Source: Maledivibacter halophilus (GTDB lineage Bacteria > Bacillota > Clostridia > Peptostreptococcales > Caminicellaceae). Taken from it: a stretch of 24,000 bases of DNA. A program made the translations under genes and the position numbers. Below, piece after piece: positions 70 through 22,328 of this stretch. The number at the start of each line of letters is the position of its first letter. Within the stretch, counting starts at the first letter, position 1. The notes beneath the pieces are model-generated. The model had not been told where the DNA came from and made no database searches. It was given only the letters and a program-made list of their open reading frames with translations. The DNA lies in assembly GCF_900167445.1 (NCBI RefSeq), contig NZ_FUZT01000001.1, positions 567,839-591,838 on the forward strand. Direction: 5' to 3'.

Positions 70-474
70 TTAATAGAATGGAGAACCATAGCCACCATAG
101 CCGCCATAGCCAAATGGCCTTCTACGTCTTCTACGTCTTCTACCTCTTCTTCGTCTCCTACCCAACAATTCTCCAAGCAGTAGTATAGTAATTAAATCCC
201 TTCCAAAACCCCTTCTTTGTCTTGTAAGATTATTATTTTCTCCAAGTTTTTTCAAATCTTCATAATCATTATTATACTCTTCTTCTATTTCTTCTGCCAT
301 TCTATTTATCAGTTCTCTATTTGGGAAAGGGTTCATCATCTGATTATATTCGTTGTCATATTCCTCACATTTTCTTTTTACATATGGCGATAGCTTGTAA
401 TATATTTCGGGATACATTTTTTCTGCTTCCTGTTCACAATAATACATATAGTTATCATAATAGATATTATCCAA
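70..474 (-). CDS. Small hypothetical protein (134 aa) with a Tyr/Glu-rich N-terminal part and a poly-Arg plus GYG-repeat C-terminal tail
   Basis: ORF-track frame. TTG start at 474, preceded by a strong SD AAGGGAGGT (minus strand, 489-481) 6 nt upstream. TAA stop, with a terminator directly downstream. No family recognised. Confidence 0.7.
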   Translation of the reverse strand: MDNIYYDNYMYYCEQEAEKMYPEIYYKLSPYVKRKCEEYDNEYNQMMNPFPNRELINRMAEEIEEEYNNDYEDLKKLGENNNLTRQRRGFGRDLITILLLGELLGRRRRRGRRRRRRRRPFGYGGYGGYGSPFY

Positions 475-609
475 TTTTAAACCTCCCTTAAAATTAATAT
501 CCTAAAGAATAGTAAAACGTATACAATATCATAATATGTTTAGAATATAAAAAAGTTACATTTAATGTAAAATAAAGATAATGGAAATAACTTAATAATA
601 ATTAAAACA

Positions 610-618
610 TGGTATAAT
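610..618 (+). promoter_or_regulatory. Extended -10 promoter element (TGgTATAAT) for the 749-7942 operon
   Basis: TG at 610-611 and TATAAT at 613-618. No good -35 is visible. It implies a leader of about 120 nt before the ATG at 749. Confidence 0.45.
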
Positions 619-748
619 AAGACTAGAAATTTACGGGATATATTATTACATGATCTAAAAGGATTCTCAGTGGTCACGGTCGTAAATTAAACATCTATAT
701 GAAGTTTCCTAAATTTAAAGGCTCTTACATAAAACAAGGAGGTATAAA

Positions 749-3700
749 ATGGCGAGTTCTCTAATTGAAGAATTATATAGGAAAATATCAGATAAACTTT
801 TAGCCCCTGACTTATTAAATGAAACTGCATTATCATCAGATTTTATTAAGGAATATATAAATTTAGATAGTTTTATAAATAAGATTGATGCAATAGTTGT
901 AAATAAAAATTATTCATGTAAAGCAGTTTTATCATTATGTAAAGATATAATGGAAAAGACAGTAAAAACTAAAGTTCCAGAGGATTGGCTTTTTTATATC
1001 TATCAGTATGCTCTAAATAAATCCTTTCCCGATGCGGTGACTATAAAACTTTATAAACACCTGGATAATGCTTGTATCATATATTTGGAGATTCTAAGGA
1101 TTGTATTAGAGATTCATAAGGTTTCCGATGACTATAGCTGGGAAAATAGTTATCCCCTTGATTTTTTAACTTTAGAAGAAGAAAATGAGCTTGAAAGTAT
1201 TGAAGAATATAGAACATTTAAAAGGGCCTTTCAAGATGAATATATATACGAAATGATGAAGCTAAATGAGGAGATTATGGGATACAGTTCCTTGCAGCAT
1301 ATATGTGGGGTACATTATCTGGCACTTTTCATAGGAAGACAATTGAAAAGTTCAGGTTTACCAATAGATTTGGGGCGAGTTTCCGGTTCTGCTGCAGGAC
1401 ATGATATAGGAAAGTTTGGCTGTAAGGAATCGGAATCAGAAAGAGTTCCATATCTTCATTATTATTACACCGGTGAATGGTTTAAAAAGCATAATATTGT
1501 ATATATAAGAAATATTGCTATTAATCATTCAACTTGGGATTTAGAGGTTGAAAATTTATCCTTGGAGAATCTAGTATTAATATATTGCGATTTTCGTGTT
1601 AAGAAAAAGGATGAAGAAATGCATATCTATAGTCTAGAAGAATCCTTTAACGTAATATTGGAAAAGTTAGATAATGTAGATAAAGCCAAGGAAGATAGAT
1701 ATTCAAGGGTATATGCAAAGCTTAAAGACTTCGAAGATTATATGCTTGATTTAGGTATAGATTTAGATGTTACTCCAGGAAAAAAGAATCCGGAAGAAAA
1801 AGTATTAAAGAAAAAGTATTACTCCTTAATGCAGGGAAAAGAGATAATTGAAAATATTAAATATCTTTCAGTAAATCATAACATAAATTTAATGTATAAG
1901 CTAAGGGATGAGTTTTCATTAAACTCCATAATAGAAATAGTAAGAAGTGAAGATGATTCAAATAATCTTAGGGGCTATTTAAATGGCTTTCAAGAGTATT
2001 CAACATATCTTACCCAAAAACAAAAACTAATTACCATAAGATTTTTATATGAACAATTAATTCATCCTGAAGACGATATTAGAATCCAGTGTGCAGAAAT
2101 TATAGGGTCACTGATTGCCACATTTGACGAAACATATAAGAAGGAAGTTCCGGATGATGTGAAGCTTGAAACAGCTGAATATGCTTCCTATGAACTGTTC
2201 CAGGACTATTTAGACCTGTTTTTATTTCCCAGCAGGCAGATTATACCAAAGCATCAAATGTGGATAGGGAAAAGTGCAAAGGTAATGGTTTTATCTCTTT
2301 TTTCAAACTCTCCTGATTATCAAATCAAGGATTTTATAAAAGTATTGTTGAGATATTATAAAAACAGTCAAGATAAAAGCAATGAATACAAGTTAAATAC
2401 CCTTAATATAGCAAAACATATTCCTATCCATCAGTGTGAAGAAAAAGAAATAGAAATATTAGTGGAATATATAAGAAATAATGTTTATGGAGAAAATAAT
2501 CTTTTAAGATTATTAGCCCTTGAAACAATATATAATTTAATACCTAAGTTTAATAGAGATTCCAATGTTTTAAAGCATATCAAAAAAGAGTTTTGTTTAA
2601 ATAGTGAATACTCACAATTTGCAGTTGAGAATTTTTTGAGATTAAAGATTGCCAATATTCTTGAGTTGGATAATGGTACAATTAGTAAATATAAAGAGTT
2701 TTGCAGATTAGATGAAGAAAAGATATCAAGTATGTTTTTAAGCAATCTTAAGACAGCAACCGATTGGGTAACAAAGAAATATCAGATAGAGCTTATAATG
2801 GAGAATACCTTGGATAATTTGGAGAATACGGGAATACATACGGCAATGCATTTTTGTAATCTTTTAAAGGTCAGTGCCAGTGAAAGTGTGAGAAATAGAG
2901 CAGGAGAAGCTTTAATAAAAATAGTTCCCAATTTGCCCTTTGATCAGAGAAATGATATTTTGGTTGAATTGTTAAGATCTTTAGAAATAGAAGGGCATCA
3001 ATTTACAAAATATATACCAAAATATCTTGGAAAACTTATACTTTACTTAGCTCCCATTGAATTAGATGAACTAATAACGGATTTTATTGAAAAAATAAGA
3101 CAATCCAGTACTGCGGTCATATCGCTTTTGCTGGAAACTATAGGTATAGTGATAGTAAACTATCCTAAGTATAGGGATTTTTGCACTGAATCTCAAAAAT
3201 TTTACAGAAATAGATTTAGTAAGATGCTGGGAATACTATTGAATGGACTTGTTAATAATAATCTTCAGGTTAGACAAGTGGCATTTAAGGTTATAGGGAT
3301 AGATGTTTTTGGATCAAAGGAGCTGAGCTTAGAAGAGAAGAAGAATATATTCAGACTTGCTGCAAAAAAGATTCTTACTCTTTTAGGAAATTCTGAAGAA
3401 TCTAAGGAATTATATTTTTTAACAAATTCAGCCGGATTGAATCATATCTATAGATTTATATCTGATTACAAATTTTATAATGGTCCTATTAAAATTCAAC
3501 AACCAAAAAAGATAGCGTTTTTTCCAGGAAGCTTTGACCCCTTTTCATTGAGTCATAAGGAGATTGCTAAGGAAATAAGAAATTTAGGCTTTGAAGTTTA
3601 TTTGGCTATTGATGAATTTTCATGGTCAAAGAGAATTCAACCTAATTTAATCAGAAGGAATATAATTAGAATGTCTATTGCAGATGAGTTAGGAATATAT

Positions 3701-5638
3701 TTATTTCCCGATGATATTCAAATAAATATCGCTAATAGTAATGATCTTGAAAGATTAAGAAATGTTTTTTCTCCCTGCGATGTTCATGTTGTTACTGGAA
3801 GTGATGTTGTTTTAAATGCTTCGGCTTATAAAAAGGAGAGTGGAACTTCTATCACTTCATTTTCCCATATCATATTTGATAGGAGAAGCCTATATTCCTC
3901 AGAAAATGATGATTTAGCTCTTGATAAAATTATTAAAAAAATAAAGGGAAATGTATTGAGACTAAGTCTAAAGCCCCAATACGAAGATATAAGTTCAACT
4001 CAAATTAGAAATTATATAGATCAAAACAGAGATATATCCAGTTTAGTTGATCCCCTTGCACAAAAATATATCTATGAAAATGGCCTATATAGAAGGGAGC
4101 CCCAATATAAGACCCTTATTCAAACAAAATCTATTTCAATAGAGGTTATATATGATATTTCAGAGGCTTTATTGAATGAACTTACCAGTTTTTTAATAAA
4201 ATATAATGAAAAAGCCTATGATATATTAAAAAATACATTGAAAAAGCTTTCAACTAGAATAATGATTTTGAGAGATATAAAAAACAATGGGAAGATATTA
4301 GGCTTTTCGATTTTCCATTGGATACGTTCAAATATGCTATTTGAGGAATTTCAAAACAATAATGTATCTGAATATATTCGTGAAAATTATATAGGAAGAA
4401 TGATAGTAATTGATGGAATATTTGCAGATAAAGATTTAGATATTCCTAATCTAAATCAAATTATACTTACTGAAAGTCTTGCTTTCTGTCTTGCAAAGGA
4501 CTATACCTATGGAATTTTTAGAAATGTAGTAGAAGGTTACTTATGTGACGATTTACATGAATATTTGGAATTACAGGGATTTAGGCTAGTACCGGGCTGT
4601 GATGAAAATAAACCTGTATTTACTGTGGATATGACGGCTCCATGTACATTATACTTAGGTGTTGAGACCTTTATAAAAGAACCCTTTGTAAGCAATTTAA
4701 ATGTAATGGAGGCTATAAAACGCTGTAGAAAAAGACTTCAAAAAGCTATTGTTAATCTTTATCCTGGAAACCTTGTATTGGCTATAGATAAACAAATGGT
4801 TTTCGAAAATCTCATTAAGAAAATTTGTGATGAAAATGGAGTTCCTACTACACCTGTTACTCCAAGAAAATTAGGTCAGGCTATGTGTGTTCCCTTTGGC
4901 CAGATTCTAAAGGGTTATATAATACCAAATACTGTGACAAAGTCTATGCATACTGAAAAATACTTCTGGCCTAATGTTAAAGATTATGAAATAGGGGCTT
5001 ATCCCTATTATATGAACTTAGAAAATCAAGTGAAAATGATTCGTTCCTTTAATAAGCCTTTAATACTGGTAGACGATTTGCTCCATAAAGGATATAGAAT
5101 AAAGACCCTTGATCCAGTACTTAAGAAAGTAAATGTAGAAGTTAGAAAGATTTTTGCTGGTATACTTTCAGGTAGAGGCAAGGAGCTTATGGATATTCAA
5201 AATAGAGAAGTGGATTTTGCTTATTTTATTCCAAAGCTAAAGGTTTGGTTTAATGAGAGCCTCATGTATCCATTTATAGGAGGAGATACTCTCTGGAGAG
5301 GCTTTTATCCAAAAAGAAATTTAGTTCCTTCAATCAATTTAATACTTCCATATACATCACCTACATTTATTAAAGGGACATCTAATAGGGCAATATATAA
5401 TCTATCAAAGGTCAGCATAGAAAACTCAATAGAAATACTAACAGTTCTTGAATCGGAATATGAGAAAATAAATGAAAGAAGTTTGACTCTGGCTAATTTG
5501 GGAGAAGTATTTATTTCACCAAGATGCCCTGACCATGGAGAAAATATGAAGTATGATTTAAAACGCAGTCCATCCCACTATTTGAAAAACGATTTGACTT
5601 CTTTAGAGCGGCTTGAATATACAATATGCAAGGAATAA
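749..5638 (+). CDS. Giant multidomain protein (1629 aa): HD phosphohydrolase, HEAT-like repeats, NadD/cytidylyltransferase-like nucleotidyltransferase, GNAT-like region and type-I phosphoribosyltransferase-like C-terminus
   Basis: SD AAGGAGG sits 7 nt before the ATG at 749; TAA stop.
- HD signature: HICGVHYLA ... AAGHDIGK (HD codons at 1400-1405).
- HEAT-like signatures: IRIQCAEIIGSL, VRNRAGEALIKIV, LQVRQVAFKVIG.
- Nucleotidyltransferase: IAFFPGSFDPFSLSH (aa 922-936) and ISSTQIR (aa 1081-1087).
- PRTase-like acidic loop: PLILVDDLLHKGYRIKT (aa 1437 onward). Confidence 0.85.
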   Translation: MASSLIEELYRKISDKLLAPDLLNETALSSDFIKEYINLDSFINKIDAIVVNKNYSCKAVLSLCKDIMEKTVKTKVPEDWLFYIYQYALNKSFPDAVTIKLYKHLDNACIIYLEILRIVLEIHKVSDDYSWENSYPLDFLTLEEENELESIEEYRTFKRAFQDEYIYEMMKLNEEIMGYSSLQHICGVHYLALFIGRQLKSSGLPIDLGRVSGSAAGHDIGKFGCKESESERVPYLHYYYTGEWFKKHNIVYIRNIAINHSTWDLEVENLSLENLVLIYCDFRVKKKDEEMHIYSLEESFNVILEKLDNVDKAKEDRYSRVYAKLKDFEDYMLDLGIDLDVTPGKKNPEEKVLKKKYYSLMQGKEIIENIKYLSVNHNINLMYKLRDEFSLNSIIEIVRSEDDSNNLRGYLNGFQEYSTYLTQKQKLITIRFLYEQLIHPEDDIRIQCAEIIGSLIATFDETYKKEVPDDVKLETAEYASYELFQDYLDLFLFPSRQIIPKHQMWIGKSAKVMVLSLFSNSPDYQIKDFIKVLLRYYKNSQDKSNEYKLNTLNIAKHIPIHQCEEKEIEILVEYIRNNVYGENNLLRLLALETIYNLIPKFNRDSNVLKHIKKEFCLNSEYSQFAVENFLRLKIANILELDNGTISKYKEFCRLDEEKISSMFLSNLKTATDWVTKKYQIELIMENTLDNLENTGIHTAMHFCNLLKVSASESVRNRAGEALIKIVPNLPFDQRNDILVELLRSLEIEGHQFTKYIPKYLGKLILYLAPIELDELITDFIEKIRQSSTAVISLLLETIGIVIVNYPKYRDFCTESQKFYRNRFSKMLGILLNGLVNNNLQVRQVAFKVIGIDVFGSKELSLEEKKNIFRLAAKKILTLLGNSEESKELYFLTNSAGLNHIYRFISDYKFYNGPIKIQQPKKIAFFPGSFDPFSLSHKEIAKEIRNLGFEVYLAIDEFSWSKRIQPNLIRRNIIRMSIADELGIYLFPDDIQINIANSNDLERLRNVFSPCDVHVVTGSDVVLNASAYKKESGTSITSFSHIIFDRRSLYSSENDDLALDKIIKKIKGNVLRLSLKPQYEDISSTQIRNYIDQNRDISSLVDPLAQKYIYENGLYRREPQYKTLIQTKSISIEVIYDISEALLNELTSFLIKYNEKAYDILKNTLKKLSTRIMILRDIKNNGKILGFSIFHWIRSNMLFEEFQNNNVSEYIRENYIGRMIVIDGIFADKDLDIPNLNQIILTESLAFCLAKDYTYGIFRNVVEGYLCDDLHEYLELQGFRLVPGCDENKPVFTVDMTAPCTLYLGVETFIKEPFVSNLNVMEAIKRCRKRLQKAIVNLYPGNLVLAIDKQMVFENLIKKICDENGVPTTPVTPRKLGQAMCVPFGQILKGYIIPNTVTKSMHTEKYFWPNVKDYEIGAYPYYMNLENQVKMIRSFNKPLILVDDLLHKGYRIKTLDPVLKKVNVEVRKIFAGILSGRGKELMDIQNREVDFAYFIPKLKVWFNESLMYPFIGGDTLWRGFYPKRNLVPSINLILPYTSPTFIKGTSNRAIYNLSKVSIENSIEILTVLESEYEKINERSLTLANLGEVFISPRCPDHGENMKYDLKRSPSHYLKNDLTSLERLEYTICKE

Positions 5639-5651
5639 AGGAGATGAAAAA

Positions 5652-6896
5652 ATGTTTTTTTACATGCTGGATGATAAGATATTGCTTTCAAATATCAAAT
5701 ATGATGATTTAGAGGAAATAAGTGAAAATACAGCAAGGGAGAACAAAGAAATTATTTATTATTTGAAAAAGGTAGATCCTTTGAAATCAAGAAGGAGATT
5801 TTGTGTATCTGATCCTTTATTATTATTTCTTAAGGAAGAAGGGCTCAATTTAATATATAAGAAGGATTTAGAAGAGTATAATTTACCCAAATGGGTAATA
5901 GATAGAATAAATAATAAAAAAGTTACTGGAATAAATACAAACTACCCAAATTGGAAAAATGCTATAAATAATACCCTTCCAAAGAAATGGAAAGTGAATG
6001 TTTTTGGATTGGGAGATGTTGGCGGCACTCTAATAACAGGACTTAGATTGTTGGGTGGAGATTGTATTTCTGAAATTGGAATATACGATAGAACAGAAAA
6101 CAAGAAAAAAAGATGGATTCTTGAAGCCAATCAAATACTTTCAGCCTTTGATGGAAAATCTTATCCTAAAGTTAAAGGCATTGCTTCAGAAGAGCTATTT
6201 GATTGCGATATGTTTGTGTTTTGTGCAAGTGTAGGTGTTCCACCAGTAGGAGAGAGGGTTAAGGATGTAAGGATGATTCAGTTTGAAGGGAATTCAAAGC
6301 TGCTTTCAGCCTATGCAAATATGGCGAGAAAATGTGGATTTAAAGGAATATTCGCAGTTGTATCTGATCCTGTGGATCTATTATGTAAGTCTGTTTTTAT
6401 AGATAGTAACACCAATGAAAATGGAAAAATTGACTATAAAGGTTTAGCACCGGAGCAAATAAGAGGCTATGGCCTTGGAGTTATGCATGCCAGAGCGGCC
6501 TATTATGCAGGTTTAGCTAAAGATACAGCCCATTATTTAAATGAAGGTAGAGCATATGGGCCCCATGGCATAGGTCTTGTGATAGCAGACAGTATAGAAA
6601 ACTATAATGAAGATAAATCAATATATTTGACAAAAAAAGCCAAAGAAGCAAATTTACAGGTTAGAGAAACGGGTTTTAAGCCCTATATTGCTCCAGCACT
6701 ATCCTCTGGGAGCCTATCGCTTTTAGCAACTATTAGAGGACAGTGGCATTATAGTGCCACATATATGGGAGGAGTTTTTATGGGAGCTAAAAATAGATTT
6801 ATTGAATCCGGTGTTGAGATAGAAATATTAGATATTCCAAATGAATTGCTTCTTCGTTTACAAGAGACCTATAGGAAATTGGAGAGAATAATATGA
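5652..6896 (+). CDS. Divergent LDH/MDH-family NAD(P)-dependent dehydrogenase with an N-terminal extension of about 110 aa
   Basis: The ORF-track frame opens at TTG 5613. ATG 5652 is preferred because SD AAAGGAG (5637-5643) lies 8 nt upstream, just after the stop of the previous gene. Motifs: KVNVFGLGDVGG (GxGxxG), AVVSDPVDLL, YGPHGIG (LDH-like catalytic His context). The TGA stop overlaps the next start. Confidence 0.75.
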   Translation: MFFYMLDDKILLSNIKYDDLEEISENTARENKEIIYYLKKVDPLKSRRRFCVSDPLLLFLKEEGLNLIYKKDLEEYNLPKWVIDRINNKKVTGINTNYPNWKNAINNTLPKKWKVNVFGLGDVGGTLITGLRLLGGDCISEIGIYDRTENKKKRWILEANQILSAFDGKSYPKVKGIASEELFDCDMFVFCASVGVPPVGERVKDVRMIQFEGNSKLLSAYANMARKCGFKGIFAVVSDPVDLLCKSVFIDSNTNENGKIDYKGLAPEQIRGYGLGVMHARAAYYAGLAKDTAHYLNEGRAYGPHGIGLVIADSIENYNEDKSIYLTKKAKEANLQVRETGFKPYIAPALSSGSLSLLATIRGQWHYSATYMGGVFMGAKNRFIESGVEIEILDIPNELLLRLQETYRKLERII

Positions 6897-7942
6897 ATAA
6901 GATATATTTAATTATGCCCGGGGAAATATCTGACAGGCTTTCTAAAATGACTGATGCAGCCACAGAAGGATTAGATATTGATATAATTAAAGATTCTTAT
7001 AATATTCCCGATCTTAGAAATAAAAAAATAATATTTGCAGTTCAGTTAAGTGATATCGGATATAATATACCATTATTTGAAATATTGACTAAGCTCTCAC
7101 AAAGAGGTAGGGAAGCCCTTAGAGGTTCTAATGGGGTTATAATAATAAATAGTTCAAATGAATTATTTACTAAGAGTGCTGCTCAGGATATAATTTTTAA
7201 AACAAATCAAATGGGTTGTCGTTTTCCGGGACATCCAATAGTTGAAGCAATAGAGGATTTAAAAAATCTACGTACATGGCAGAAAAATTTGAGTTTACCC
7301 CTTGATGATATATGTATTAAATTATGTAGAAAACTACGAAAAAACTTTATTAATGACAATCCTAAGATTATAAAAAATCCCAGGATTATAGTACTTCATG
7401 CAAGTACCCATGAAACTTCAAATACTTTAAAGCTTTGGAAGATGACAAAAAAGCATTTAAAAAATTGTGAAATAGAAGAATATCATGTTGAAAATGGAAC
7501 AATAGTAGATTGTAAAGGCTGTTTATATACTACATGTATGCATTACAGCGAGAAAAAATCATGTTTCTATGGGGGGATGATTACTAAAGAATTGCTGCCT
7601 GCAATTGAAAGAGCAGATGCCGTTGTATGGGTATGTCCCAATTATAATGATGCTGTATCTGCCAAGCTTATGGCAGTAATAAATAGGCTGACGGTTCTTT
7701 ATAGAAGAACAAAATTCTATAAGAAAACATTGTTTGGGATAATTGTATCGGGAAATTCTGGTTCCGATTCAGTTTCCAAGCAGCTAATCGGCGCTTTGAA
7801 TATTAATAAAAGCTTTAGATTACCGCCTTATTTTTCTATTATGGCTATAGCAAATGATCCAGATGAAATAATGAATATACAGGATATTGATGAAAAAGCT
7901 AGGGAATTTGCAAATAATATTATGGGGGAAATTAAGGCATGA
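6893..7942 (+). CDS. Flavodoxin-fold NADPH-dependent FMN-reductase / iron-sulfur-flavoprotein-like protein with an extra N-terminal domain (349 aa)
   Basis: ATGA start/stop overlap with the upstream gene; SD GGAGAG upstream. C-terminal half: IIVLHASTHETSNT, Cys cluster DCKGCLYTTC...SC, ADAVVWVCPNYNDAVSAKLMAVINRL. Confidence 0.75.
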   Translation: MNKIYLIMPGEISDRLSKMTDAATEGLDIDIIKDSYNIPDLRNKKIIFAVQLSDIGYNIPLFEILTKLSQRGREALRGSNGVIIINSSNELFTKSAAQDIIFKTNQMGCRFPGHPIVEAIEDLKNLRTWQKNLSLPLDDICIKLCRKLRKNFINDNPKIIKNPRIIVLHASTHETSNTLKLWKMTKKHLKNCEIEEYHVENGTIVDCKGCLYTTCMHYSEKKSCFYGGMITKELLPAIERADAVVWVCPNYNDAVSAKLMAVINRLTVLYRRTKFYKKTLFGIIVSGNSGSDSVSKQLIGALNINKSFRLPPYFSIMAIANDPDEIMNIQDIDEKAREFANNIMGEIKA

Positions 7943-8081
7943 CATTTTAAATACATTTGGTATATTTGTAAAGGTTTATTGTTTTTAAAATAAGTATAAT
8001 TAATTTTGTAAGAAATTTTTAAGAAAATACAACTACCAATTAATTACAAAATCAATTATAATAGATTTTGGGTGATGGGAT

Positions 8082-9041
8082 ATGAAAAAATTTTATATTA
8101 TACTAATAGTAACTTTTTTATTGACCTCCTGTTCAAATAATGAGGTTGAGGTGGCTGTGGAAAAACTTGAGTCAGATAACAGTCTTTTAAAGGAACAAAT
8201 TAAATCCTTAGAAAAGGAAAATCAATTACTTAACAATCAAAATAAGGAATTAGTAGAGAAAAATAAAAGCCTTAATGAGGGAATAAAGAAAAAGGATTCA
8301 AAGATTGATACGCTAAAAAAAGAAATAGAAACATTCCAGCAGCACCAATCCTTTTCTGATAATATAAAAAAGACAAAGGTTTTAGATGCTGATCTCAATA
8401 ATGATGGGGAAAGAGAAATTATTAAACTTGAATCTAGCCAAAATAAATACTATAGACTGTTTACTAATGATATTTCTATAACAAGTATAGGTTTAAATGT
8501 AGACTATGATTTTAAAGTTGTAGACATTGATATTGAAGATCATGTAAAGGAAATTGCAATAAGTGAATGGGGATCAAATAGTAAAGAACCAAAAACTAAA
8601 TTTTACATATACTCTACAGACAATATATATTACATAGGTAAAATTCATGGACATATTAATGATATAACTATTAATGGTGATGGAAGTTTAATAATACCGG
8701 CAAAGGGAAATATCCTTTATTCATGGAGCTATTCTAAGAAATATAAGCTATCTACAGGACATATGCTTGTAGAAGAGCCCCAGGAGCTATATCAAATCAA
8801 TCAAAAGGTTAAGGTTTTAAAAAGCATTCCATTATTAAAATCTACTACTGAAAATGAAATGATAGCTGCTCTTACTGTAGGAGAGGAAGTAACTTTATTA
8901 TCCAGTGATAATAAAAAATGGTGTCAGGTGGAAAAGGCAAATGGAGTAAAGGGATGGTTTGAAGTAGAAGACTTTGATAAAATCAAGGGAACAGAGTACA
9001 CAGCAAAGGATGTTTTTGAGGGATTAGATAATAATAGTTGA
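8082..9041 (+). CDS. Lipoprotein with a coiled-coil region, a DxNxDG-type motif and a C-terminal bacterial SH3-like domain
   Basis: Signal peptide plus lipobox LLTSC (aa 13-17). Heptad-like E/K/L/N-rich segment. LDADLNNDGEREII. C-terminus KWCQVEKANGVKGWFEVEDF. Terminator downstream. Confidence 0.75.
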   Translation: MKKFYIILIVTFLLTSCSNNEVEVAVEKLESDNSLLKEQIKSLEKENQLLNNQNKELVEKNKSLNEGIKKKDSKIDTLKKEIETFQQHQSFSDNIKKTKVLDADLNNDGEREIIKLESSQNKYYRLFTNDISITSIGLNVDYDFKVVDIDIEDHVKEIAISEWGSNSKEPKTKFYIYSTDNIYYIGKIHGHINDITINGDGSLIIPAKGNILYSWSYSKKYKLSTGHMLVEEPQELYQINQKVKVLKSIPLLKSTTENEMIAALTVGEEVTLLSSDNKKWCQVEKANGVKGWFEVEDFDKIKGTEYTAKDVFEGLDNNS

Positions 9042-9084
9042 GAAAATTATAGATAATTCTAATTTCCTCAGTTAATAATTGAAG

Positions 9085-9121
9085 CCTATTAGTTTTATTT
9101 AAAAAACTAGTAGGTTTTTTT
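9085..9121 (+). terminator. Rho-independent terminator after the lipoprotein gene
   Basis: Arms CCTATTAGTTTT (9085-9096) and AAAACTAGTAGG (9103-9114) with one mismatch, followed by a T-run at 9115-9121. Confidence 0.7.
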
Positions 9122-9286
9122 GTGCTGAAAAATAGTAGGGAAAAACAGCGTTTGCTATACTTTATATAGGAAAAAAATAAAAAAATTACACAAGTTACAA
9201 ATTATGACAACATTTTTGGCTGAATTTGTGTATTATATATATTAAGGACATTAATTAGTTTTGTATCGGATTAATAGGGGGAACAT

Positions 9287-9754
9287 ATGATGCTAGAATA
9301 TATATGGGTTGCGGTTTTTGCTTCTTTTCCAGAGGCTGCATTAGCACTTCTTATGGGATTCAATCTATCAAATGTAAGGGATATAAAATTGTGGAAGATT
9401 TTAATTGTTGCAGGAATTCAATCTGGAATTGCTTTGTTTGTAAGAATGACTAATGTATATTTCGGACTTCATTCAATAGTGCAAATTATAACATTATATT
9501 TACTTGTTATTATATTTTTTAAAATTAAATATTATAAAGCCATTATTCCAGTAGCTATAAGCTATATATCACAAGTGGCACTTCAAAATATTATAATACC
9601 GATAATTAGTATAGCTTTTAGAATAGATATAGCTAATTTATATTATAATTCTAAAAAATTAATTTTAGTTAGTATTCCGGTTTCTTTAATATACTTGATT
9701 TTCCTGATGATTATTATAAGAAAAAATCTATATCTATGTGATATTAATGATTAG
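9287..9754 (+). CDS. Polytopic membrane protein (155 aa, about 5 TM helices); appears to be the N-terminal sensor half of an AgrC-like kinase, ended by an in-frame TAG
   Basis: SD AGGGGGA lies before ATG 9287. The sequence is almost entirely hydrophobic helices. It is in the same reading frame as 9758..10639, separated only by TAG (9752-9754) and one codon. Confidence 0.6.
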   Translation: MMLEYIWVAVFASFPEAALALLMGFNLSNVRDIKLWKILIVAGIQSGIALFVRMTNVYFGLHSIVQIITLYLLVIIFFKIKYYKAIIPVAISYISQVALQNIIIPIISIAFRIDIANLYYNSKKLILVSIPVSLIYLIFLMIIIRKNLYLCDIND

Positions 9755-9757
9755 AAG

Positions 9758-10639
9758 GTGGTAGTTTTGAAGAACAAAAATAAATATATAATTATATTTA
9801 CCATGTTATTTCAAGCCATTATTATAAGTATACTTAATGGTATAATATGGAATTCTAATACTTTAAATATAATTGAAGAAAATATATTCTTTAATTATAT
9901 TCTTACAGTAATTATAGTAATAACAACCACTCTTATATTTATTTCCTTAAAAAAATTTAGCTATTATGAAAAAAAGGAAGCAGAATTCAAGTTAATAAAA
10001 GCCAATATGAAAAATACAGAAGAGTTAATAAATTTATTACATTCCCAAAGACTAGAATATTTAACCCATATTCAATCTATAGGGGCACTGGTATATTTAG
10101 AAGAATATGAAGAACTATCTAAGTATTTAAAAGGTATATCTAAGAATTATAGATTCAATGGTGGTATTATCAGTGCAGGACATCCAGCACTTACTGCATT
10201 GATTAATGCTAAAAGAGAAATAGCCCGTGAAAAAAATATATTTTTCTATACTAGAATCAAACAAAAACTGAATTGTATGAATATACCTTCTTGGGATTTA
10301 TGTATACTTTTTTCAAACCTTATTGAAAATGCAATAGAAGCAGCCTCAATGACGGAGGGAAAAAAGTGGATGAAGGTAGTGATTGATTATTATAATAATA
10401 ATTTTGTGTTTGAAATTGAAAATACAGGACAAATGGAAAATAATATTATGAAAAATTTATTTAAACAGGGAAATACCTCAAAGGCATCTTCGGGAAGGGG
10501 ATATGGACTATATATTTCTAAAAAAATTCTGGACAAGTACGATGGTTCTATAGATATCAAAAATACAGATATAGGTACAGTATTATGTACTGTAACATTA
10601 CCTAGGGAGGTAGGTAATTATAATGAAGAGGTTAGCTGA
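9758..10639 (+). CDS. AgrC-like / GHKL sensor histidine kinase half (2 TM helices, Spo0B-type dimerisation helix and ATPase domain)
   Basis: GAAGGTGG (9754-9761) straddles the upstream stop. Candidate starts are GTG 9758 or in-frame TTG 9767. H-box-like segment LLHSQRLEYLTHIQSIGAL; N-box FSNLIENAIEA; G2-like SGRGYGLYISKKI. The 3' end overlaps agrB by 17 nt. Confidence 0.75.
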   Translation: MVVLKNKNKYIIIFTMLFQAIIISILNGIIWNSNTLNIIEENIFFNYILTVIIVITTTLIFISLKKFSYYEKKEAEFKLIKANMKNTEELINLLHSQRLEYLTHIQSIGALVYLEEYEELSKYLKGISKNYRFNGGIISAGHPALTALINAKREIAREKNIFFYTRIKQKLNCMNIPSWDLCILFSNLIENAIEAASMTEGKKWMKVVIDYYNNNFVFEIENTGQMENNIMKNLFKQGNTSKASSGRGYGLYISKKILDKYDGSIDIKNTDIGTVLCTVTLPREVGNYNEEVS

Positions 10640-11231
10640 TAGTATTTCAAACTATATGGCAAAGGAATTGAAATATGATGATGAAAAGAGGGAGATACTT
10701 TCCTATGGTCTACAGGTTTTTTTAGGAGATTTAGCAAAAACTATAAGTATGTTGGTATTAGCATATTTTTTAAATATTTTTATTACTACTTTAGTTGTAA
10801 TGATATCATTTGTTTTTTTTAGAAGAATTATTGGAGGAACCCATGCTGATACTTATAATAAATGTTATTTTGTTAGTGTTCTTTTAATACTTTTATTAGG
10901 AAAAGTGGGAGAAATAGTTGATCTAAAATTTACACAGATTACGATATTAATTTTAATAGTTTATATATTAGCTGTGATAGCCACAATTTTATGGATTCCT
11001 GCAGGGACTGAAAAGAAAATGATAAAAAATAAAGCTACACGAAAAAAAATAAAAATTGAAACAATGATTTTATTAACATTTTGGGCTATATTAATTAGCT
11101 ATTTAAACAGCTTAGAGCTATTTAAATATGTAATATCAAGCTTATTAGGTGTTGCTCTAGCATTTTTCTTTACAACTCCATTAGGTTATAGATTTATGGA
11201 CTTTAAATTACTTAAGATAAATATTAACTAA
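10623..11231 (+). CDS. agrB: AgrB-family autoinducing-peptide processing and export protease
   Basis: 202-aa polytopic membrane protein. The motif RRIIGGTHADTYNKCYF has His and Cys spaced H-x6-C, the same spacing as the catalytic H77/C84 of S. aureus AgrB. It lies immediately upstream of an AgrD-like peptide gene. Confidence 0.85.
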   Translation: MKRLADSISNYMAKELKYDDEKREILSYGLQVFLGDLAKTISMLVLAYFLNIFITTLVVMISFVFFRRIIGGTHADTYNKCYFVSVLLILLLGKVGEIVDLKFTQITILILIVYILAVIATILWIPAGTEKKMIKNKATRKKIKIETMILLTFWAILISYLNSLELFKYVISSLLGVALAFFFTTPLGYRFMDFKLLKININ

Positions 11232-11247
11232 AGGGGGATAATCAAAT

Positions 11248-11388
11248 ATGTTTAAAAGCTTAAAAACTTTTTTATTATCATCAGCAGCTTGTTTACTTAC
11301 TTTAGTAGCTATGAGTGGCGTTAGTACTAGATGTTGGTATTGGACTTATGAACCAGATATTCCAGAAAGCTTAAAGAGGGATTTATAA
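11248..11388 (+). CDS. agrD: AgrD-type cyclic (thio)lactone autoinducer peptide precursor, 46 aa; not in the ORF track
   Basis: SD AAGGGGGA (11231-11238) lies 9 nt before ATG 11248; TAA at 11386-11388. Translation: MFKSLKTFLLSSAACLLTLVAMSGVSTRCWYWTYEPDIPESLKRDL. It has an amphipathic/hydrophobic leader, a single core Cys and a C-terminal acidic EP-x-x-P recognition tail, and sits directly after agrB. Confidence 0.8.
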   Translation: MFKSLKTFLLSSAACLLTLVAMSGVSTRCWYWTYEPDIPESLKRDL

Positions 11389-11406
11389 TTCAAGATTTAA
11401 CTTTTA

Positions 11407-11502
11407 ATGGATGTTTTAATATGTAGCGACGATCAGTATTTAGGAAAAATGCTAGAGAAAATAACACCTTTAGTAAATAAGGTAAAAAATAGTTTACCGT
11501 AG
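11407..11502 (+). pseudogene. Probable remnant of a response-regulator receiver-domain N-terminus (31 codons)
   Basis: Translates as MDVLICSDDQYLGKMLEKITPLVNKVKNSLP*. The xxVLICxDD start resembles strand beta-1 and the acidic pair of AgrA/LytTR-type regulators. It ends at TAG and is in a different frame from the LytTR ORF. The position matches where agrA would start. Confidence 0.4.
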
Positions 11503-11525
11503 ATAAGTTTCATCTTTATCACAGT

Positions 11526-11577
11526 ATATATGGAGTACGCAATAAATTCTTATTACGTATTTCCATATATTTTTTTG
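11526..11577 (+). terminator. AT-rich hairpin plus T-run between the receiver remnant and the LytTR gene (candidate agrBD terminator)
   Basis: ATATATGGA (11526-11534) pairs with TCCATATAT (11562-11570), with further partial pairing GTACG/CGTAT. A T7 run follows at 11571-11577. Confidence 0.45.
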
Positions 11578-11618
11578 AAGCCCGTTAATATTTAGGACTT
11601 TAAAAGGAGGCAGGGATT

Positions 11619-11993
11619 ATGAAAGCTATTCAAAATGAAATATTAAATGAGAATGATAATAATTTAGATAAACTAGCTATTAAAGAAGAAGGACATATAA
11701 ATTTTGTAATGGTAAAGGACATATTATATTTTGAAAAAAGTCATAGAAAGGTTTTAGCCCATACAGCTAAAAATACATACACTTTGAACAGCACTTTAAA
11801 GGAGCTAGAAGAAAATTTAGACGATAAATTTACTAAAACCCATAGATCCTTCATAGTTAATAAGAAGAAAATCAAAAAGATAAAAGAAGTAGGTGACCGG
11901 ACATACGAAATTCAATTTTTTGATACTGATAAGAAGGCTAGTTTAAGCAGAAAAAAATATGAGGAACTAATGAAAGGCTTGTCTATTTTTTAG
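11619..11993 (+). CDS. Stand-alone LytTR DNA-binding domain protein (124 aa; AgrA-like C-terminal domain without a receiver)
   Basis: Strong SD AAAGGAGG (11602-11609) before ATG 11619. An in-frame TAA at 11601 prevents extension upstream. LytTR-type sequence: INFVMVKDILYFEKSHRKVLAHT...THRSFIVNKKKIKKIKE. Confidence 0.8.
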   Translation: MKAIQNEILNENDNNLDKLAIKEEGHINFVMVKDILYFEKSHRKVLAHTAKNTYTLNSTLKELEENLDDKFTKTHRSFIVNKKKIKKIKEVGDRTYEIQFFDTDKKASLSRKKYEELMKGLSIF

Positions 11994-12332: not shown

Positions 12333-13424
12333 ATGCTGATTCAATGTACAAAGAAACTAATGGATATTCTTAAAACTAAGACAACTTTGATTAAAGATGA
12401 AAAACCACTCTTTTCATGGCATGCAAACCTGATAAGTATTAATCGTAGAAATACCGTAGTCCTTGTCAATGATAGCAATCGTTATACAATTATTTTGTAT
12501 GGACTAAAGTCCAAAGACTTTAAAAAGCTTGATGAAATTGCAATCAATGCTATTCGTGAGACTTTACTGGCGGAAGGGATAAAAGCTGAAATTGTAGAAG
12601 AATTTATAAATGCTTCGCCTAAAGTTAGCTATGCCAAAACAAAAAATAGATCAATGGTTGCAAGGATGAATAAATCTTGTGATAATGTATATTCTTCTGG
12701 AGAAATATTGGATGCAAATTCCATAAATCAAAGCAATGTTAGTATGGTAGTAAGTGCTCTGCTTGTGGGTAATGGGAAAAATGAGTACATATATCCCAAT
12801 GAAAATATGTACAAGGATTTGGAAAACTTTGTATCTTCATCTATCTTTAGCTGTAGGGCCCTAGAGCTAAAAATATTACTTAATCTTTTAAATCACAAGG
12901 TTTGGAGAAGTATCATTGTGCCAGATTATATTACATTTAAGCAGTTTCATCATATACTTCAAATTGTATTTGATTGGAAGGATTATCATCTTCATGATTT
13001 TTATGTATTTGATGGTGACAAGCCTGTTGTTAATTTAGTTTGTAGTAATGATGCTTTTGAATATCCAAATGAAGTACCTATGCTGCAAGAAAGCAATATT
13101 AAACTATCAGAATATCTTCCTAAATACTCAAGGATAAAATACAACTATGATTTTGGCGACAACTGGGAGCACTATATTACTGTAGAAAAAACAATTGAAA
13201 ACTATATGAAAAATTATCCTATATGCATAGACGGTAAAGGAAATGCACCACCAGAGGATGTAGGTGGAGAGTTAGGGTATGATGAATTTTTAGAAGCAAT
13301 ATCTGATCCTAAGCATCCTGAGCATCATGATATGGTAAATTGGTCTAAAATGCAGGGGTATAGAAATTTTGATTTTGAATTGGTTAATAGAAGACTTAAA
13401 GTATCATTAAAGAGATTGAGCTAG
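12333..13424 (+). CDS. pRiA4b ORF-3-like (MM3350-like) domain protein with an N-terminal domain of unknown function
   Basis: C-terminal half carries the family hallmarks LELKILLNLLNHKVWRSIIVP, YNYDFGDNWEH and CIDGKGNAPPEDVGG. SD GAGGGAGGG upstream; TAG stop. Confidence 0.8.
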   Translation: MLIQCTKKLMDILKTKTTLIKDEKPLFSWHANLISINRRNTVVLVNDSNRYTIILYGLKSKDFKKLDEIAINAIRETLLAEGIKAEIVEEFINASPKVSYAKTKNRSMVARMNKSCDNVYSSGEILDANSINQSNVSMVVSALLVGNGKNEYIYPNENMYKDLENFVSSSIFSCRALELKILLNLLNHKVWRSIIVPDYITFKQFHHILQIVFDWKDYHLHDFYVFDGDKPVVNLVCSNDAFEYPNEVPMLQESNIKLSEYLPKYSRIKYNYDFGDNWEHYITVEKTIENYMKNYPICIDGKGNAPPEDVGGELGYDEFLEAISDPKHPEHHDMVNWSKMQGYRNFDFELVNRRLKVSLKRLS

Positions 13425-15630: not shown

Positions 15631-15657
15631 TAAGGTTTAGATGAAGGTGTGAAGCAA

Positions 15658-16461
15658 ATGGTAAGAAAAAGAAGGGAATTAAGTAGTACAGGAATATATC
15701 ATATAATGATAAGAGGAAATGAAAAAAGAAATATATTTCTTGACGATGATGATAGAGAAAAATTTATTAACATACTATTTGATAAGAAAAAAGATAATGA
15801 ATATAAGCTTTATGCATATTGTTTGATGAACAATCATGTTCATTTACTATTAAAAGAGGAAAAAGAGGATATATCTAGAAATATGAAAAGAATAAATATA
15901 AGCTATGCATATTATTTCAACAAAAAATATGAAAGAGTAGGACATGTATTCCAAGATAGATTCAAGAGTGAAACAGTAGAGGATGATATATACTTATTGC
16001 AAGTAATAAGATATATACACAATAATCCAGTAAAAGCTGGAATAGTAAAAAGCCCTTTAAAATATAAATGGAGTAGTTATAGTTCATATACTTCAAAGGG
16101 TTATAATAAAAATAGTATAGTAGATAATAATTTTATATTGCTGATGTTCTCAAAAAATAAAAGAGAAGCAGTAAAACTATTTATAGAATATTCATTACAA
16201 GAAAACGAAGATGTTTTTATTGATGAAAGAAAAAAAGAAAAGAAGAAAAAAATTATATTGACTGAAAAAGCAGCAAGAGATTTTATAGATAAGTTTTTAA
16301 ACAAAAATAATTTAAAATTAGATGAAATAAGAAATAAGGAAAATAAAAAGTTAAGAAATGAGTTAATTTTAGAGTTGAGAAAAAAATCAAATTTGTCAAT
16401 TAGAAATATTTCTAGTTTATTAAAAATCAGTAGGGGCGTTGTGCAAAATGTGAAAACATGA
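15658..16461 (+). CDS. IS200-like / REP-associated (RayT-like) Y1 tyrosine transposase with a C-terminal HTH-like region (267 aa)
   Basis: ATG 15658 is preferred over the track's GTG 15649 because of SD GAAGGTG 7 nt upstream. Motifs: TGIYHIMIRGNEKRNIF, HUH motif NNHVHLLL, QDRFKS and the catalytic-Tyr context VIRYIHNNPVKAG. Confidence 0.85.
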   Translation: MVRKRRELSSTGIYHIMIRGNEKRNIFLDDDDREKFINILFDKKKDNEYKLYAYCLMNNHVHLLLKEEKEDISRNMKRINISYAYYFNKKYERVGHVFQDRFKSETVEDDIYLLQVIRYIHNNPVKAGIVKSPLKYKWSSYSSYTSKGYNKNSIVDNNFILLMFSKNKREAVKLFIEYSLQENEDVFIDERKKEKKKKIILTEKAARDFIDKFLNKNNLKLDEIRNKENKKLRNELILELRKKSNLSIRNISSLLKISRGVVQNVKT

Positions 16462-19048: not shown

Positions 19049-20131
19049 ATGAAAGTTGATGTTTATGTACTTTATGGAGGAAAATCTGTGGAGCATGAGG
19101 TATCTTTACTAACTGCTTTATCTATTATTAATGCTTTAAATAAAGAGAAGTACAATGTATATCCTATTTACATTACAAAGAATGGGATTTGGTATAATAA
19201 AGGACTTGTAAGGGAGACAATAAAGGATGTAGGGGAGTTAAAGAATTTTTCTACAAAATCTATTTTAAAATCTATAGCTGAAGATTTTTTGAAGAAAATA
19301 AAAGCTAATACCAGAACTGTTATTTTTCCTGCTTTACATGGAACAAATGGTGAAGATGGAACAATTCAAGGGCTTTTAGAGCTTTTGGATGTGCCTTATG
19401 TAGGCAATGGAATTATGGCATCGGCAGTAGGTTTTGATAAAGCCATGACGAAGGAATTATTTTCAAAGGCTAATGTGCCCCAAGCTCAATATGAAATTTT
19501 AGATTATCAAGAATGGATAAAAAGTGAAAAAGACAGCTATGTAAGATTAGAGGAGGCAATTGGTTATCCCTGCTTTGTAAAGCCCGCAAGATTAGGGTCA
19601 AGTGTAGGTATTAATCGCTGTGGAAACATAGAAGAATTAAAAGAAGCAATTAATGAAGCCTTTTTTTATGATATCAAGCTAGTTATTGAAAAAGAAATCA
19701 TTGGGAGAGAGATGCAAATATCAGTTATTGGCAATGAAAGCCCTAAAAGCTCTGTAATAGGAGAGTTTATACAGGAAAAACCCTTTATGGATTACTCAGC
19801 TAAGTACCTTGATGGAAAGCTTATTCCTGTTATACCAGCAAGGCTGTCAGATGAAATTACTTCTAAAATGCAGGAAACAGCTCTTAAAATCTTTAAACTT
19901 TTAAATTGTAATGGTTTGGCAAGAGTAGATTATTTCGTAAGCCATAATGATAAGTTTTTTGTTAATGAAATTAACACCATGCCAGGATTTACAAAGGCTA
20001 GTATGACACCTGTTCTATGGGAGAAAACAGATGGAACCTCCTATCAACAGCTTATAGAGAAGCTCATAGAATATGCCTTCGAACGCCATGAGAAAAAAGG
20101 AACATTGCTATATGATAGGAGGATAATATGA
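19049..20131 (+). CDS. ddl: D-alanine--D-alanine ligase
   Basis: SD GAAGGAGG. Motifs GGKSVEHEVSL, KPARLGSSVGI and NEINTMPGFT. The omega-loop reads DYSAKY, with the Tyr of the D-Ala-D-Ala type retained. Confidence 0.92.
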   Translation: MKVDVYVLYGGKSVEHEVSLLTALSIINALNKEKYNVYPIYITKNGIWYNKGLVRETIKDVGELKNFSTKSILKSIAEDFLKKIKANTRTVIFPALHGTNGEDGTIQGLLELLDVPYVGNGIMASAVGFDKAMTKELFSKANVPQAQYEILDYQEWIKSEKDSYVRLEEAIGYPCFVKPARLGSSVGINRCGNIEELKEAINEAFFYDIKLVIEKEIIGREMQISVIGNESPKSSVIGEFIQEKPFMDYSAKYLDGKLIPVIPARLSDEITSKMQETALKIFKLLNCNGLARVDYFVSHNDKFFVNEINTMPGFTKASMTPVLWEKTDGTSYQQLIEKLIEYAFERHEKKGTLLYDRRII

Positions 20132-21522: not shown

Positions 21523-21620
21523 TAGTATAGGTGACAGATAAGCCTTTTACTTATACCTAAAATAGTATAAAATAATGAAGATAAATAATAAAAAATTATT
21601 GGAAAGGGTATATGTAAAAA

Positions 21621-22328
21621 ATGGTGGAAAGAAATAAAATATTAATTATAGATGATGAAAAGGAAATTGCAGATTTAGTGGGAATTTACTTGATGAATGA
21701 AGGTTATAGTGTATTAAAAGCCTATACTGGCAAAGAAGCATTGGAAACTTTAGAAAAGGAGGCTATTGATTTAGCGATTCTTGACATTATGATGCCAGGG
21801 ATTGACGGTCTTGAAGTATGTAGAAGGATACGTAAAGATAAGAATATACCTATTTTGATGTTAAGTGCTAAGTCGGAAGATATAGACAAAATTCTTGGCT
21901 TGACAACAGGAGCCGATGACTATTTAACAAAGCCCTTTAACCCCTTAGAATTAATTGCAAGGGTTAAATCTCAGCTAAGGAGATATTTATATTTAAATCC
22001 TAAAAATTCTAGGGAAACCTATGAAAAGGATGAAATTGTTTGTAAAGGTTTAACTATAAATAAAGCTATACATACCGTAACACTATTTGATAATATTGTA
22101 AACCTGACACCTATCGAGTTTGATATCCTACTATTACTGGCTAGTAATCCTGGAAAGGTATATACAGTTGATGAAATATTTCATATAGTATGGAAGGAAG
22201 ACTATTTAGAGTCAGATAATACGGTTAGAGTACATATTAGGAAAATTCGAGAAAAGATAGAAAGTGACTCCAAAAACCCTTTATTCATTAAAACGATATG
22301 GGGGGTAGGCTATAAATTTGAAGATTAA
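21621..22328 (+). CDS. OmpR-family response regulator, VanR-like
   Basis: Receiver ILIIDDEKEIADL...DLAILDIMMPGIDG...GADDYLTKPF. Winged-helix C-terminus TVRVHIRKIREKI...IKTIWGVGYKF. By eye it closely resembles VanR-type regulators. Confidence 0.88.
   Translation: MVERNKILIIDDEKEIADLVGIYLMNEGYSVLKAYTGKEALETLEKEAIDLAILDIMMPGIDGLEVCRRIRKDKNIPILMLSAKSEDIDKILGLTTGADDYLTKPFNPLELIARVKSQLRRYLYLNPKNSRETYEKDEIVCKGLTINKAIHTVTLFDNIVNLTPIEFDILLLLASNPGKVYTVDEIFHIVWKEDYLESDNTVRVHIRKIREKIESDSKNPLFIKTIWGVGYKFED

Follow-up and report, generated by a model that had tools for sequence, protein, structure and literature searches.

In the nicotinamide adenine dinucleotide (NAD) salvage systems formed by NadV with NadM, by the multifunctional NadR or by NadM-Nudix, a base reacts with phosphoribosyl pyrophosphate (PRPP) to give a mononucleotide, which reacts with ATP to give a dinucleotide, and a hydrolase is sometimes fused to these enzymes. 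A NadD-type nucleotidyltransferase and an HD phosphohydrolase share an operon in the nadD-yqeK pair of Firmicutes and a polypeptide in the NadD-YqeK fusion of mycoplasmas (JCVISYN3A_0380), the HD domain of which hydrolyzes the dinucleotide products and diadenosine tetraphosphate (Ap4A) (PMC9426524). Here, we describe a three-gene module from Maledivibacter halophilus, located at positions 749 to 7942 of the window (the whole stretch of DNA that was analyzed, 24,000 nucleotides of contig NZ_FUZT01000001.1). Its first gene likewise joins a NadD-type and an HD domain in one polypeptide, but their order is reversed, a HEAT region of ~540 amino acids (aa) lies between them, and the HD domain does not belong to the YqeK family. 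Gene 1 also misses the NadD equivalog cut-off and adds a GNAT-fold domain and a phosphoribosyltransferase (PRTase)-like domain, and it is accompanied by two conserved redox partners, encoded by genes 2 and 3.

The logic that we propose for gene 1 is that of NadV/NadM-type salvage. However, the PRTases of those systems are of type II, whereas the gene 1 domain is type-I-like and divergent, and they have neither the scaffold nor the GNAT domain nor the redox partners found in the trio. In its proposed mode of action, gene 1 most resembles the fused NAD enzymes (NadD-YqeK, NadM-Nudix, and NadR) and salvage by a PRTase plus a nicotinamide mononucleotide adenylyltransferase (NMNAT). It should not be filed in any of these families below the superfamily level, because it scores under the NadD and Pribosyltran cut-offs, matches no YqeK model, and shows no GNAT acyl-CoA loop. 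What is new is how parts of familiar types are combined. Our literature and database searches found neither a characterized member nor a paper on the gene 1 architecture or the trio, in line with the original prediction (a model's reading of the letters), which had not recognized the architecture as a characterized system. The names carried in databases ('NadD', 'LDH', and 'flavodoxin') are automatic.

The module is real, ancient, widespread, and uncharacterized. We identified its domains, found residues of catalytic type retained in them, and found the three genes linked. Our preferred reading, to which we give a probability of about 35%, is that the trio forms one dedicated machine, in which gene 1 would phosphoribosylate, adenylylate, and hydrolyze a dinucleotide, with two redox enzymes serving it.

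Organization of the locus

Three open reading frames (ORFs) lie tightly packed on the forward strand of the window at 749-7942:

749-5638, + strand: gene 1, 1629 aa (WP_079489142.1); full-length homologs have 1600-1650 aa
5652-6896, + strand: gene 2, 414 aa; alternative TTG start at 5613
6893-7942, + strand: gene 3, 349 aa

The gene 1 product is 100% identical to WP_079489142.1 of M. halophilus. Because of this database identity and of the full-length homologs at 45-85% identity, the ORF is not a chance one, and the single frame of 1629 codons that had been read from the letters is borne out. The same applies to the stop/start coupling of the three genes. The TAA stop of gene 1 (5636-5638) is followed immediately by AAGGAG, with the ATG of gene 2 at 5652, 13 nt downstream, while the TGA of gene 2 and the ATG of gene 3 overlap as ATGA at 6893-6896. 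The motifs quoted in the original prediction were all found in the gene 1 protein (H184, H218-D219, PGSFDPFSLSH at 926-936, ISSTQIR at 1081-1087, and LILVDDLLHKG at 1438-1448).

Domain architecture of gene 1

The domains were assigned from family alignments and two AlphaFold models, which covered the N-terminal and C-terminal halves of the protein, and stand in the following order (pLDDT is the predicted local distance difference test score):

749-1183 (aa 1-145), + strand: helical N-terminal domain, AlphaFold pLDDT 75-95
1184-1783 (aa 146-345), + strand: HD phosphohydrolase domain, ligands H184, H218-D219, H237, H260, and D281
1841-3463 (aa 365-905, ~540 aa), + strand: HEAT/ARM alpha-solenoid, helical hairpins throughout in AlphaFold
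3491-4114 (aa 915-1122, 208 residues), + strand: NadD/NMNAT-type nucleotidyltransferase, with PGSFDPFSLSH 926-936, GSDxxxxxxxY 1017-1027, and ISSTQIR 1081-1087
4115-4768 (aa 1123-1340), + strand: GNAT-fold domain, the best-predicted part of the C-terminal model
4769-5635 (aa 1341-1629), + strand: type-I-PRTase-like domain, with the PRPP-loop-like LILVDDLLHKG 1438-1448 and conserved PNTVTK and YPFIGGD

Within the gene 1 protein, sequence profiles alone (Pfam and NCBIfam) identify only the nucleotidyltransferase. With alignments and models added, each of the five domains that had been called earlier (HD, HEAT, NadD-like, GNAT-like, and PRTase) found support, which for the PRTase lies below the Pfam threshold.

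The nucleotidyltransferase matches Pfam CTP_transf_like over aa 924-1088 at 27.7 bits against a gathering score of 21. NCBIfam NadD models align with it end to end at scores far below their cut-offs (43.7 versus 150 for NF000840 and 38.8 versus 112 for TIGR00482), and on the first of these, against the NadD equivalog cut-off, a housekeeping NadD identity for gene 1 was rejected. The PDB profile search gave a full-length match to the nicotinic acid mononucleotide adenylyltransferase (NaMNAT) of Plasmodium (5llt; E value of 1.5e-9), followed by VPA0413, bacterial NadDs, and phosphopantetheine adenylyltransferases (PPATs). Foldseek with the first domain of the C-terminal model retrieved NadD structures, and a PDB sequence search with the whole of gene 1 returned NadD/PPAT matches only. 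The NadD-like call is supported by profile searches. Across the gene 1 family, the G-x-F-D-P...H, G-S-D-x7-Y, and ISSTxxR motifs are invariant or nearly so; in the first, which ends in S933-L-S-H936, the His is invariant, and in the last, S1083 and R1087 never vary, while at least 90% of sequences have S1082, Q1085, and I1086. The original prediction had drawn attention to the Ser residues that replace the canonical His and Gly in PGSFDPFSLSH. They are no sign of inactivation, as the aligned Plasmodium NaMNAT reads GSFDPITYAH, with TYAH at the HxGH site, and has the same T/S-x-x-H variant. PPATs carry TxGH. Judged by these residues, the gene 1 nucleotidyltransferase looks catalytically competent.

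In the HD domain, the ligands H184, H218, D219, H260, and D281 are invariant in the family alignment and H237 is present in at least 90% of sequences. This six-ligand H-HD-H-H-D pattern is typical of dimetal HD enzymes. Pfam HD scores 12.9 bits for the gene 1 protein and 24.7 bits in a homolog (gathering score, 22), and it matches 5 of 13 family members at E values of up to 1. Ligand conservation and the homolog above the cut-off bear out the HD signature seen earlier. The NCBIfam models that come nearest are the C terminus of the DVU_1551 family NTP transferase, with matches in 9 of 13 members, and TIGR00295, with matches in 8 of them.

The N-terminal AlphaFold model (pLDDT 79) is helical throughout. 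Foldseek matched the solenoid to PP2A PR65, CAND1, and importin-alpha at E values of 1e-5 to 1e-4, and Pfam HEAT matches 11 of the 13 family members, all of which agrees with the HEAT-like repeats of the original prediction. Because HEAT proteins filled the Foldseek list of this model, the HD and N-terminal domains are without structural placement. For aa 1-145, Pfam and NCBIfam searches gave no family match, and this helical domain is detectable in 59 of the 80 long-form representatives described below. PP2A PR65/A, CAND1, and the importins have the same HEAT fold as gene 1 (Foldseek E value of ~1e-5) at 10-14% identity. The PP2A solenoid joins catalytic and regulatory subunits, whereas that of gene 1 is bacterial and covalently flanked by enzyme domains, with docking of the partners proposed. 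Both the HEAT region and the full-length protein are acidic (pI 6.4), their net charges being about -5 and -9.5, respectively. All gene 1 domains are acidic save the PRTase-like one, and the two partners are basic (pI 8.6 and 9.0). Nucleic acid binding by the HEAT region was considered and rejected, as the region is acidic.

The GNAT domain was recognized by its fold. The Foldseek matches include NatD, AtaT, and GCN5, with a probability of 1.0 and a target TM-score of 0.5-0.6, while the Pfam search of gene 1 gave no acetyltransferase match. Its identity of 34-50% is the lowest of any part of the protein.

The PRTase-like domain has 52-68% identity, on par with the best-conserved parts of gene 1, and is retained in the short forms of the protein. 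Its invariant residues lie within PNTVTK, WF-E, YP, GD, and N-I-P. Pfam Pribosyltran gave subthreshold matches in 17 of 27 family members (best E value of 3.9e-4), and no other family recurs comparably; the gene 1 protein of the window itself had no Pribosyltran match. The loop segment, LILVDDLLHKGYR, has the strand, the DD pair, and a Gly at the right spacing, with H, K, and R in place of Thr. AlphaFold confidence is low across the domain, and these last 290 residues are the weakest domain call of gene 1.

The two redox partners

The features of the proteins encoded downstream are as follows:

5652-6896, + strand: gene 2, GLGDVGG 119-125, D146, R207, R281, and H305; ~110-aa N-terminal extension
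6893-7942, + strand: gene 3, N-terminal domain (aa 1-160), then flavin mononucleotide (FMN)-binding FMN_red domain

Gene 2 had been assigned to the lactate/malate dehydrogenase (LDH/MDH) family, and this is upheld by Pfam Ldh_1_N (27.4 bits versus a cut-off of 27) and by the invariance of the catalytic His and both Arg residues. R207, R281, and H305 correspond to LDH Arg109, Arg171, and His195 in a motif-by-motif alignment. The PDB profile search matched L-LDHs over the N-terminal half only (E value of 1.7e-9). The Rossmann fold has the GxGxxG motif and Asp146 at the end of beta-2, which is the NAD signature. Gene 2 thus shares the Rossmann domain and the three catalytic equivalents with L-lactate, malate, and L-2-hydroxyisocaproate dehydrogenases (Ldh_1). 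However, the equivalent of Asp168, the partner of the catalytic His, is variable, that of Asn140 is Asp, and neither the C-terminal half, in which Pfam found no Ldh_1_C, nor the 110-aa N-terminal extension had a match. With 27.9 bits against an equivalog cut-off of 303, gene 2 is far under the LDH/MDH cut-offs of NCBIfam.

Gene 3 is, as had been predicted, an FMN-reductase-type flavoprotein with an extra N-terminal domain. Pfam FMN_red scores 79.8 bits versus a cut-off of 24 and matched 23 of 23 members, and the FMN phosphate-loop residues S176, N177, and T178 are invariant in the family. Four Cys residues are also invariant (C207-x2-C210-x4-C215-x8-C224), and the protein probably carries an Fe-S cluster. 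A PDB sequence search with gene 3 matched no solved structure. The FMN_red fold and FMN phosphate loop are shared with Methanosarcina Isf, which also has a compact four-Cys motif after the first beta-alpha unit. The Isf motif is tighter than the CX2CX4CX8C of gene 3, and the 160-aa N-terminal domain is extra in gene 3.

Conservation, distribution, and variant forms

A scan of one genome per species gave at least 558 matching stretches. The hosts include Clostridiaceae, Peptostreptococcales, Tissierellia, Sedimentibacter, Fusibacter, Dehalobacterium, "Candidatus Formimonas," Atribacterota, and one Calditrichales genome. The neighborhood was compared in 82 loci (81 fetched ones plus the window). 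Gene 2 follows gene 1 in 76 of the 82 and gene 3 is present in 69, the exceptions being mostly contig ends and second copies. The operon linkage seen in the original prediction is thus upheld and extends well beyond this genome, with the three genes as conserved neighbors. No other gene family is common to more than 10 of the 82 loci. With median intergenic gaps of 9 nt and -1 nt in the trio, tight packing is general and not a quirk of the M. halophilus genome.

Searched against 1.84 billion proteins, a profile of the PRTase-like domain retrieved 402 representatives, of which 185 had an E value of 1e-30 or less. Those with 1000 aa or more include 80 in the complete HD-HEAT-nucleotidyltransferase-GNAT-PRTase order and 24 short forms, which are rarer than the long ones, measure 1050-1300 aa, begin inside the HEAT region, and lack both the N-terminal and the HD domain. 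In several of the short forms, the nucleotidyltransferase His (FDPFTLKD, His to Asp) and the ISST motif are lost. Two short-form loci were read (L082 at 361-4140 and L084 at 5843-9544; proteins P0234 and P0273), and neither has gene 2 or gene 3 nearby; in both, the short-form gene is followed by a DUF6514 gene and a YigZ/IMPACT-family gene. The degenerate nucleotidyltransferase motif is seen in short forms other than these two. In this small sample, presence of the HD domain coincides with presence of the two redox partners. Further members of the short subfamily are P0250, P0251, P0257, and P0259.

A long form from a Lachnospiraceae metagenome-assembled genome (MAG), with 33% identity, has a gene 2 homolog directly downstream and a gene 3 homolog 6 kb upstream, and the linkage of the trio thus survives rearrangement in this relative. 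The locus is usually single-copy and rarely present twice per genome across more than 500 species. Second full-length copies of gene 1 without an adjoining gene 2 or gene 3 occur at L003, L004, and L027 (L006 is from the same MAG as L027), and Crassaminicella thermophila and C. indica have two gene 1 copies each (P0017/P0043 and P0048/P0069). The copies from Atribacterota (L010, L012, L016, L018, L021, and L078) and Calditrichales (L019) have 52-54% identity to the Maledivibacter protein, above the 45-47% of the Sedimentibacter and Fusibacter copies. As the copies from other phyla are closer than these, the identities suggest transfer of the whole module between phyla.

The region before gene 1 has elements of its own:

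475-748, + strand: upstream noncoding region, with the extended -10-like TGgTATAAT at 610-618 and the Shine-Dalgarno sequence AAGGAGG at 736-742

Ten of 78 loci have the word TGGTATAA ahead of gene 1, compared with 2 in shuffled sequences. We infer a promoter at the -10-like element, and the promoter elements of the module look like sigma-70 housekeeping types. Divergent from gene 1, a 134-aa ORF on the minus strand (70-474) was not matched by Pfam; Tyr and Glu abound in its N-terminal part, after which come a run of ~17 Arg residues with a few Gly and a GYGGYGGYG tail.

Proposed function and alternatives

The reaction steps, a physical complex, and the identity of the molecule are what we infer for the trio, as follows. 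The PRTase-like domain would bind PRPP or a phosphoribosyl compound and provide a base-ribose-5'-phosphate, which the NadD-type domain would adenylylate with ATP, giving a pyrophosphate-linked, NAD-like dinucleotide. The HD domain, with its dimetal-type ligand set, may cut such pyrophosphate bonds for turnover or proofreading, as YqeK does for NadD. We propose this cleavage because the mycoplasma NadD-YqeK fusion is a precedent: in that single polypeptide, the HD domain hydrolyzes analogs of nicotinic acid adenine dinucleotide (NaAD) (PMC9426524). The HEAT solenoid would keep the modules together and dock the two basic partner proteins, for which the opposite charges (gene 1 acidic, genes 2 and 3 basic) offer a weak argument. 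The degenerate GNAT fold could be a ligand-binding or acyl-handling accessory. Gene 2, through 2-hydroxy/2-oxo-acid chemistry, and gene 3, with FMN and a probable Fe-S cluster, might build or alter the base or acid moiety, or else use the product. In favor of this scheme are the seemingly competent nucleotidyltransferase, the conserved HD ligands, the strong constraint on the PRTase-like domain, the conservation of the trio as a unit, and the covariation of its parts in the short forms. Synthesis or turnover of an NAD-like (di)nucleotide, as suggested in the original prediction, is thus a plausible interpretation of the domains. A bolder version, which we hold to be doubtful, is that the module makes, uses, and degrades an unknown adenine dinucleotide, an NAD-like cofactor or signal that would be built on a base other than nicotinamide or on a moiety bearing a hydroxy acid, and that genes 2 and 3 are its dedicated redox enzymes.

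Several observations count against the preferred reading. For the C-terminal half of gene 1, the AlphaFold model is only moderate (pLDDT 62). In the GNAT domain, the Q/RxxGxG/A acyl-CoA loop was not found, and the stretch after the core strand is variable. The GNAT-like stretch of the original prediction therefore stands as a fold, by Foldseek only, and lacks the acetyl-CoA loop motif in what is the least conserved domain. For the PRTase call, the weak profile support in 17 of the 27 members stands, but none of them reaches the Pribosyltran gathering score (26.3 bits), and the PRPP loop, VDDLLHKGYR, is without the usual Thr residues. Its second Asp is Asn (VDN) in 6 of 27 aligned sequences, several from Clostridium (L029, L031, L039, L040, L041, and L046). 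In hhalign, the PRTase-like profile aligned with Escherichia coli Hpt at the PRPP loop only, with a probability of 1.4%, and the PDB search of the domain gave an insignificant match to a hypoxanthine phosphoribosyltransferase (HPRT; 4rqa), again of the loop only. The HD domain does not belong with the yqeK Ap4A hydrolases, which the original prediction had named as classic operon partners of nadD: no YqeK (COG1713) model matched it, with the DVU_1551 C terminus and TIGR00295 being nearest. The upstream regions do not point to a metabolite either. The window has no Rfam match to a riboswitch or RNA leader at gathering scores, and the search for a common regulator site upstream of gene 1 in the 78 loci found only Shine-Dalgarno and -10-like words enriched.

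The fusion might instead serve canonical NAD(P) homeostasis, salvaging or rebuilding NAD from a base through nicotinamide mononucleotide (NMN) or nicotinic acid mononucleotide (NaMN) and degrading it with the HD domain, while the two redox proteins handle pyridine nucleotides that are reduced or damaged. The nucleotidyltransferase has its best matches among genuine NaMN/NMN adenylyltransferases and retains the aromatic position of its G-x-D-x7-W/Y motif, the Rossmann fold of gene 2 is of the NAD type and includes the Asp146 signature, and NadD-HD fusions act on NaAD (PMC9426524). We nevertheless find this account, redox roles included, unlikely, given that the scores are far under every NadD equivalog cut-off (43.7 versus 150 bits) and that it gives no reason for 540 aa of scaffold, for the GNAT fold, or for a pair of dedicated redox enzymes. 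Moreover, the known nicotinate, nicotinamide, and quinolinate PRTases are of type II and not type-I-like. That gene 1 is simply a housekeeping NadD is hardly credible. Databases do name it 'nicotinate-nicotinamide nucleotide adenylyltransferase,' but such names are automatic transfers from one Pfam domain, and the NadD-like part, at 43.7 bits against the 150-bit cut-off, makes up 208 of 1629 residues.

In a different reading, which seems to us about as improbable as NAD homeostasis, the HEAT region binds the partners or another protein, the nucleotidyltransferase and HD domains attach a nucleotidyl group and take it off again, much as in GlnD, and the PRTase-like and GNAT-like domains sense PRPP or a nucleotide and acyl-CoA. 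The HEAT fold does match PP2A-A-type scaffolds, the charge of gene 1 is opposite to that of its partners, and the degeneracy of the GNAT and PRPP-loop motifs is what one would expect of sensor pseudoenzymes; some short forms have also lost the catalytic His of the nucleotidyltransferase and kept the remainder. However, nucleotidyltransferases of the HIGH-motif NadD/PPAT type are generally known to act on small phosphorylated molecules and not on protein side chains, and the PRTase-like domain is conserved too strongly for a relaxed sensor. Modification or repair of RNA or tRNA, with the GNAT domain acting as in AtaT/TmcA, the HD domain as in CCA-adding enzymes or in cap removal, and HEAT as an RNA platform, has a slim chance. 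It could draw on the AtaT, KacT, and Kre33 among the GNAT-domain Foldseek matches, and YqeK-type HD enzymes are reported to remove Np4 caps (PMC13010140). Yet those matches are generic fold matches, the protein is acidic (pI 6.4), both in its HEAT region and overall, no domain for RNA binding was found, and the redox partners would go unexplained. Slimmer still is the chance of an antiphage or conflict system manipulating NAD or nucleotides. Many defense systems are known to act on NAD, the genomic context of the module differs between genomes, and transfer is suggested by a sequence similarity that is higher between phyla than among some Firmicutes; but there was no PADLOC match and no effector-type domain, sequence and length are very highly conserved, with usually one copy per genome in more than 500 species, and the promoter elements resemble sigma-70 housekeeping types.

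Other features of the window

Downstream of the module, an agr-type quorum-sensing cassette occupies 9758-11993:

9758-10639: GHKL histidine kinase
10623-11231: AgrB
11248-11388: AgrD-like prepeptide ORF, 46 aa, containing STRCWYWTYEPDIPE
11619-11993: LytTR-only protein, 124 aa, without a receiver domain

A PRiA4_ORF3/DUF6933 protein and an IS200-type Y1 transposase (12333-13424 and 15649-16461) lie a few kilobases downstream of the module and hint at mobile DNA near it. Further on, 19049-23424 encodes Ddl and a MurF-type ligase and, directly after them, an OmpR-type response regulator with a HAMP/HisKA sensor kinase.

Significance of the module

The module is experimentally tractable, as it consists of three genes with no other required neighbors and has many thermophilic and mesophilic orthologs, and the short form, minus the HD domain and minus the partners, is a natural built-in comparison. 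Even with ordinary NAD as its product, gene 1 would be the first bacterial HEAT-scaffolded multienzyme of nucleotide metabolism and would exemplify the coordination of an HD hydrolase with a NadD-type transferase. If the proposed chemistry is true, a large group of anaerobes, with many sediment, digester, and subsurface lineages among them, would have a self-contained route to an NAD-type dinucleotide, one that is absent from pathway maps and that annotation pipelines label 'NadD.' A new dinucleotide, if that part also proved true, would be a widespread molecule among strict anaerobes of the Clostridia, Tissierellia, and Atribacterota.

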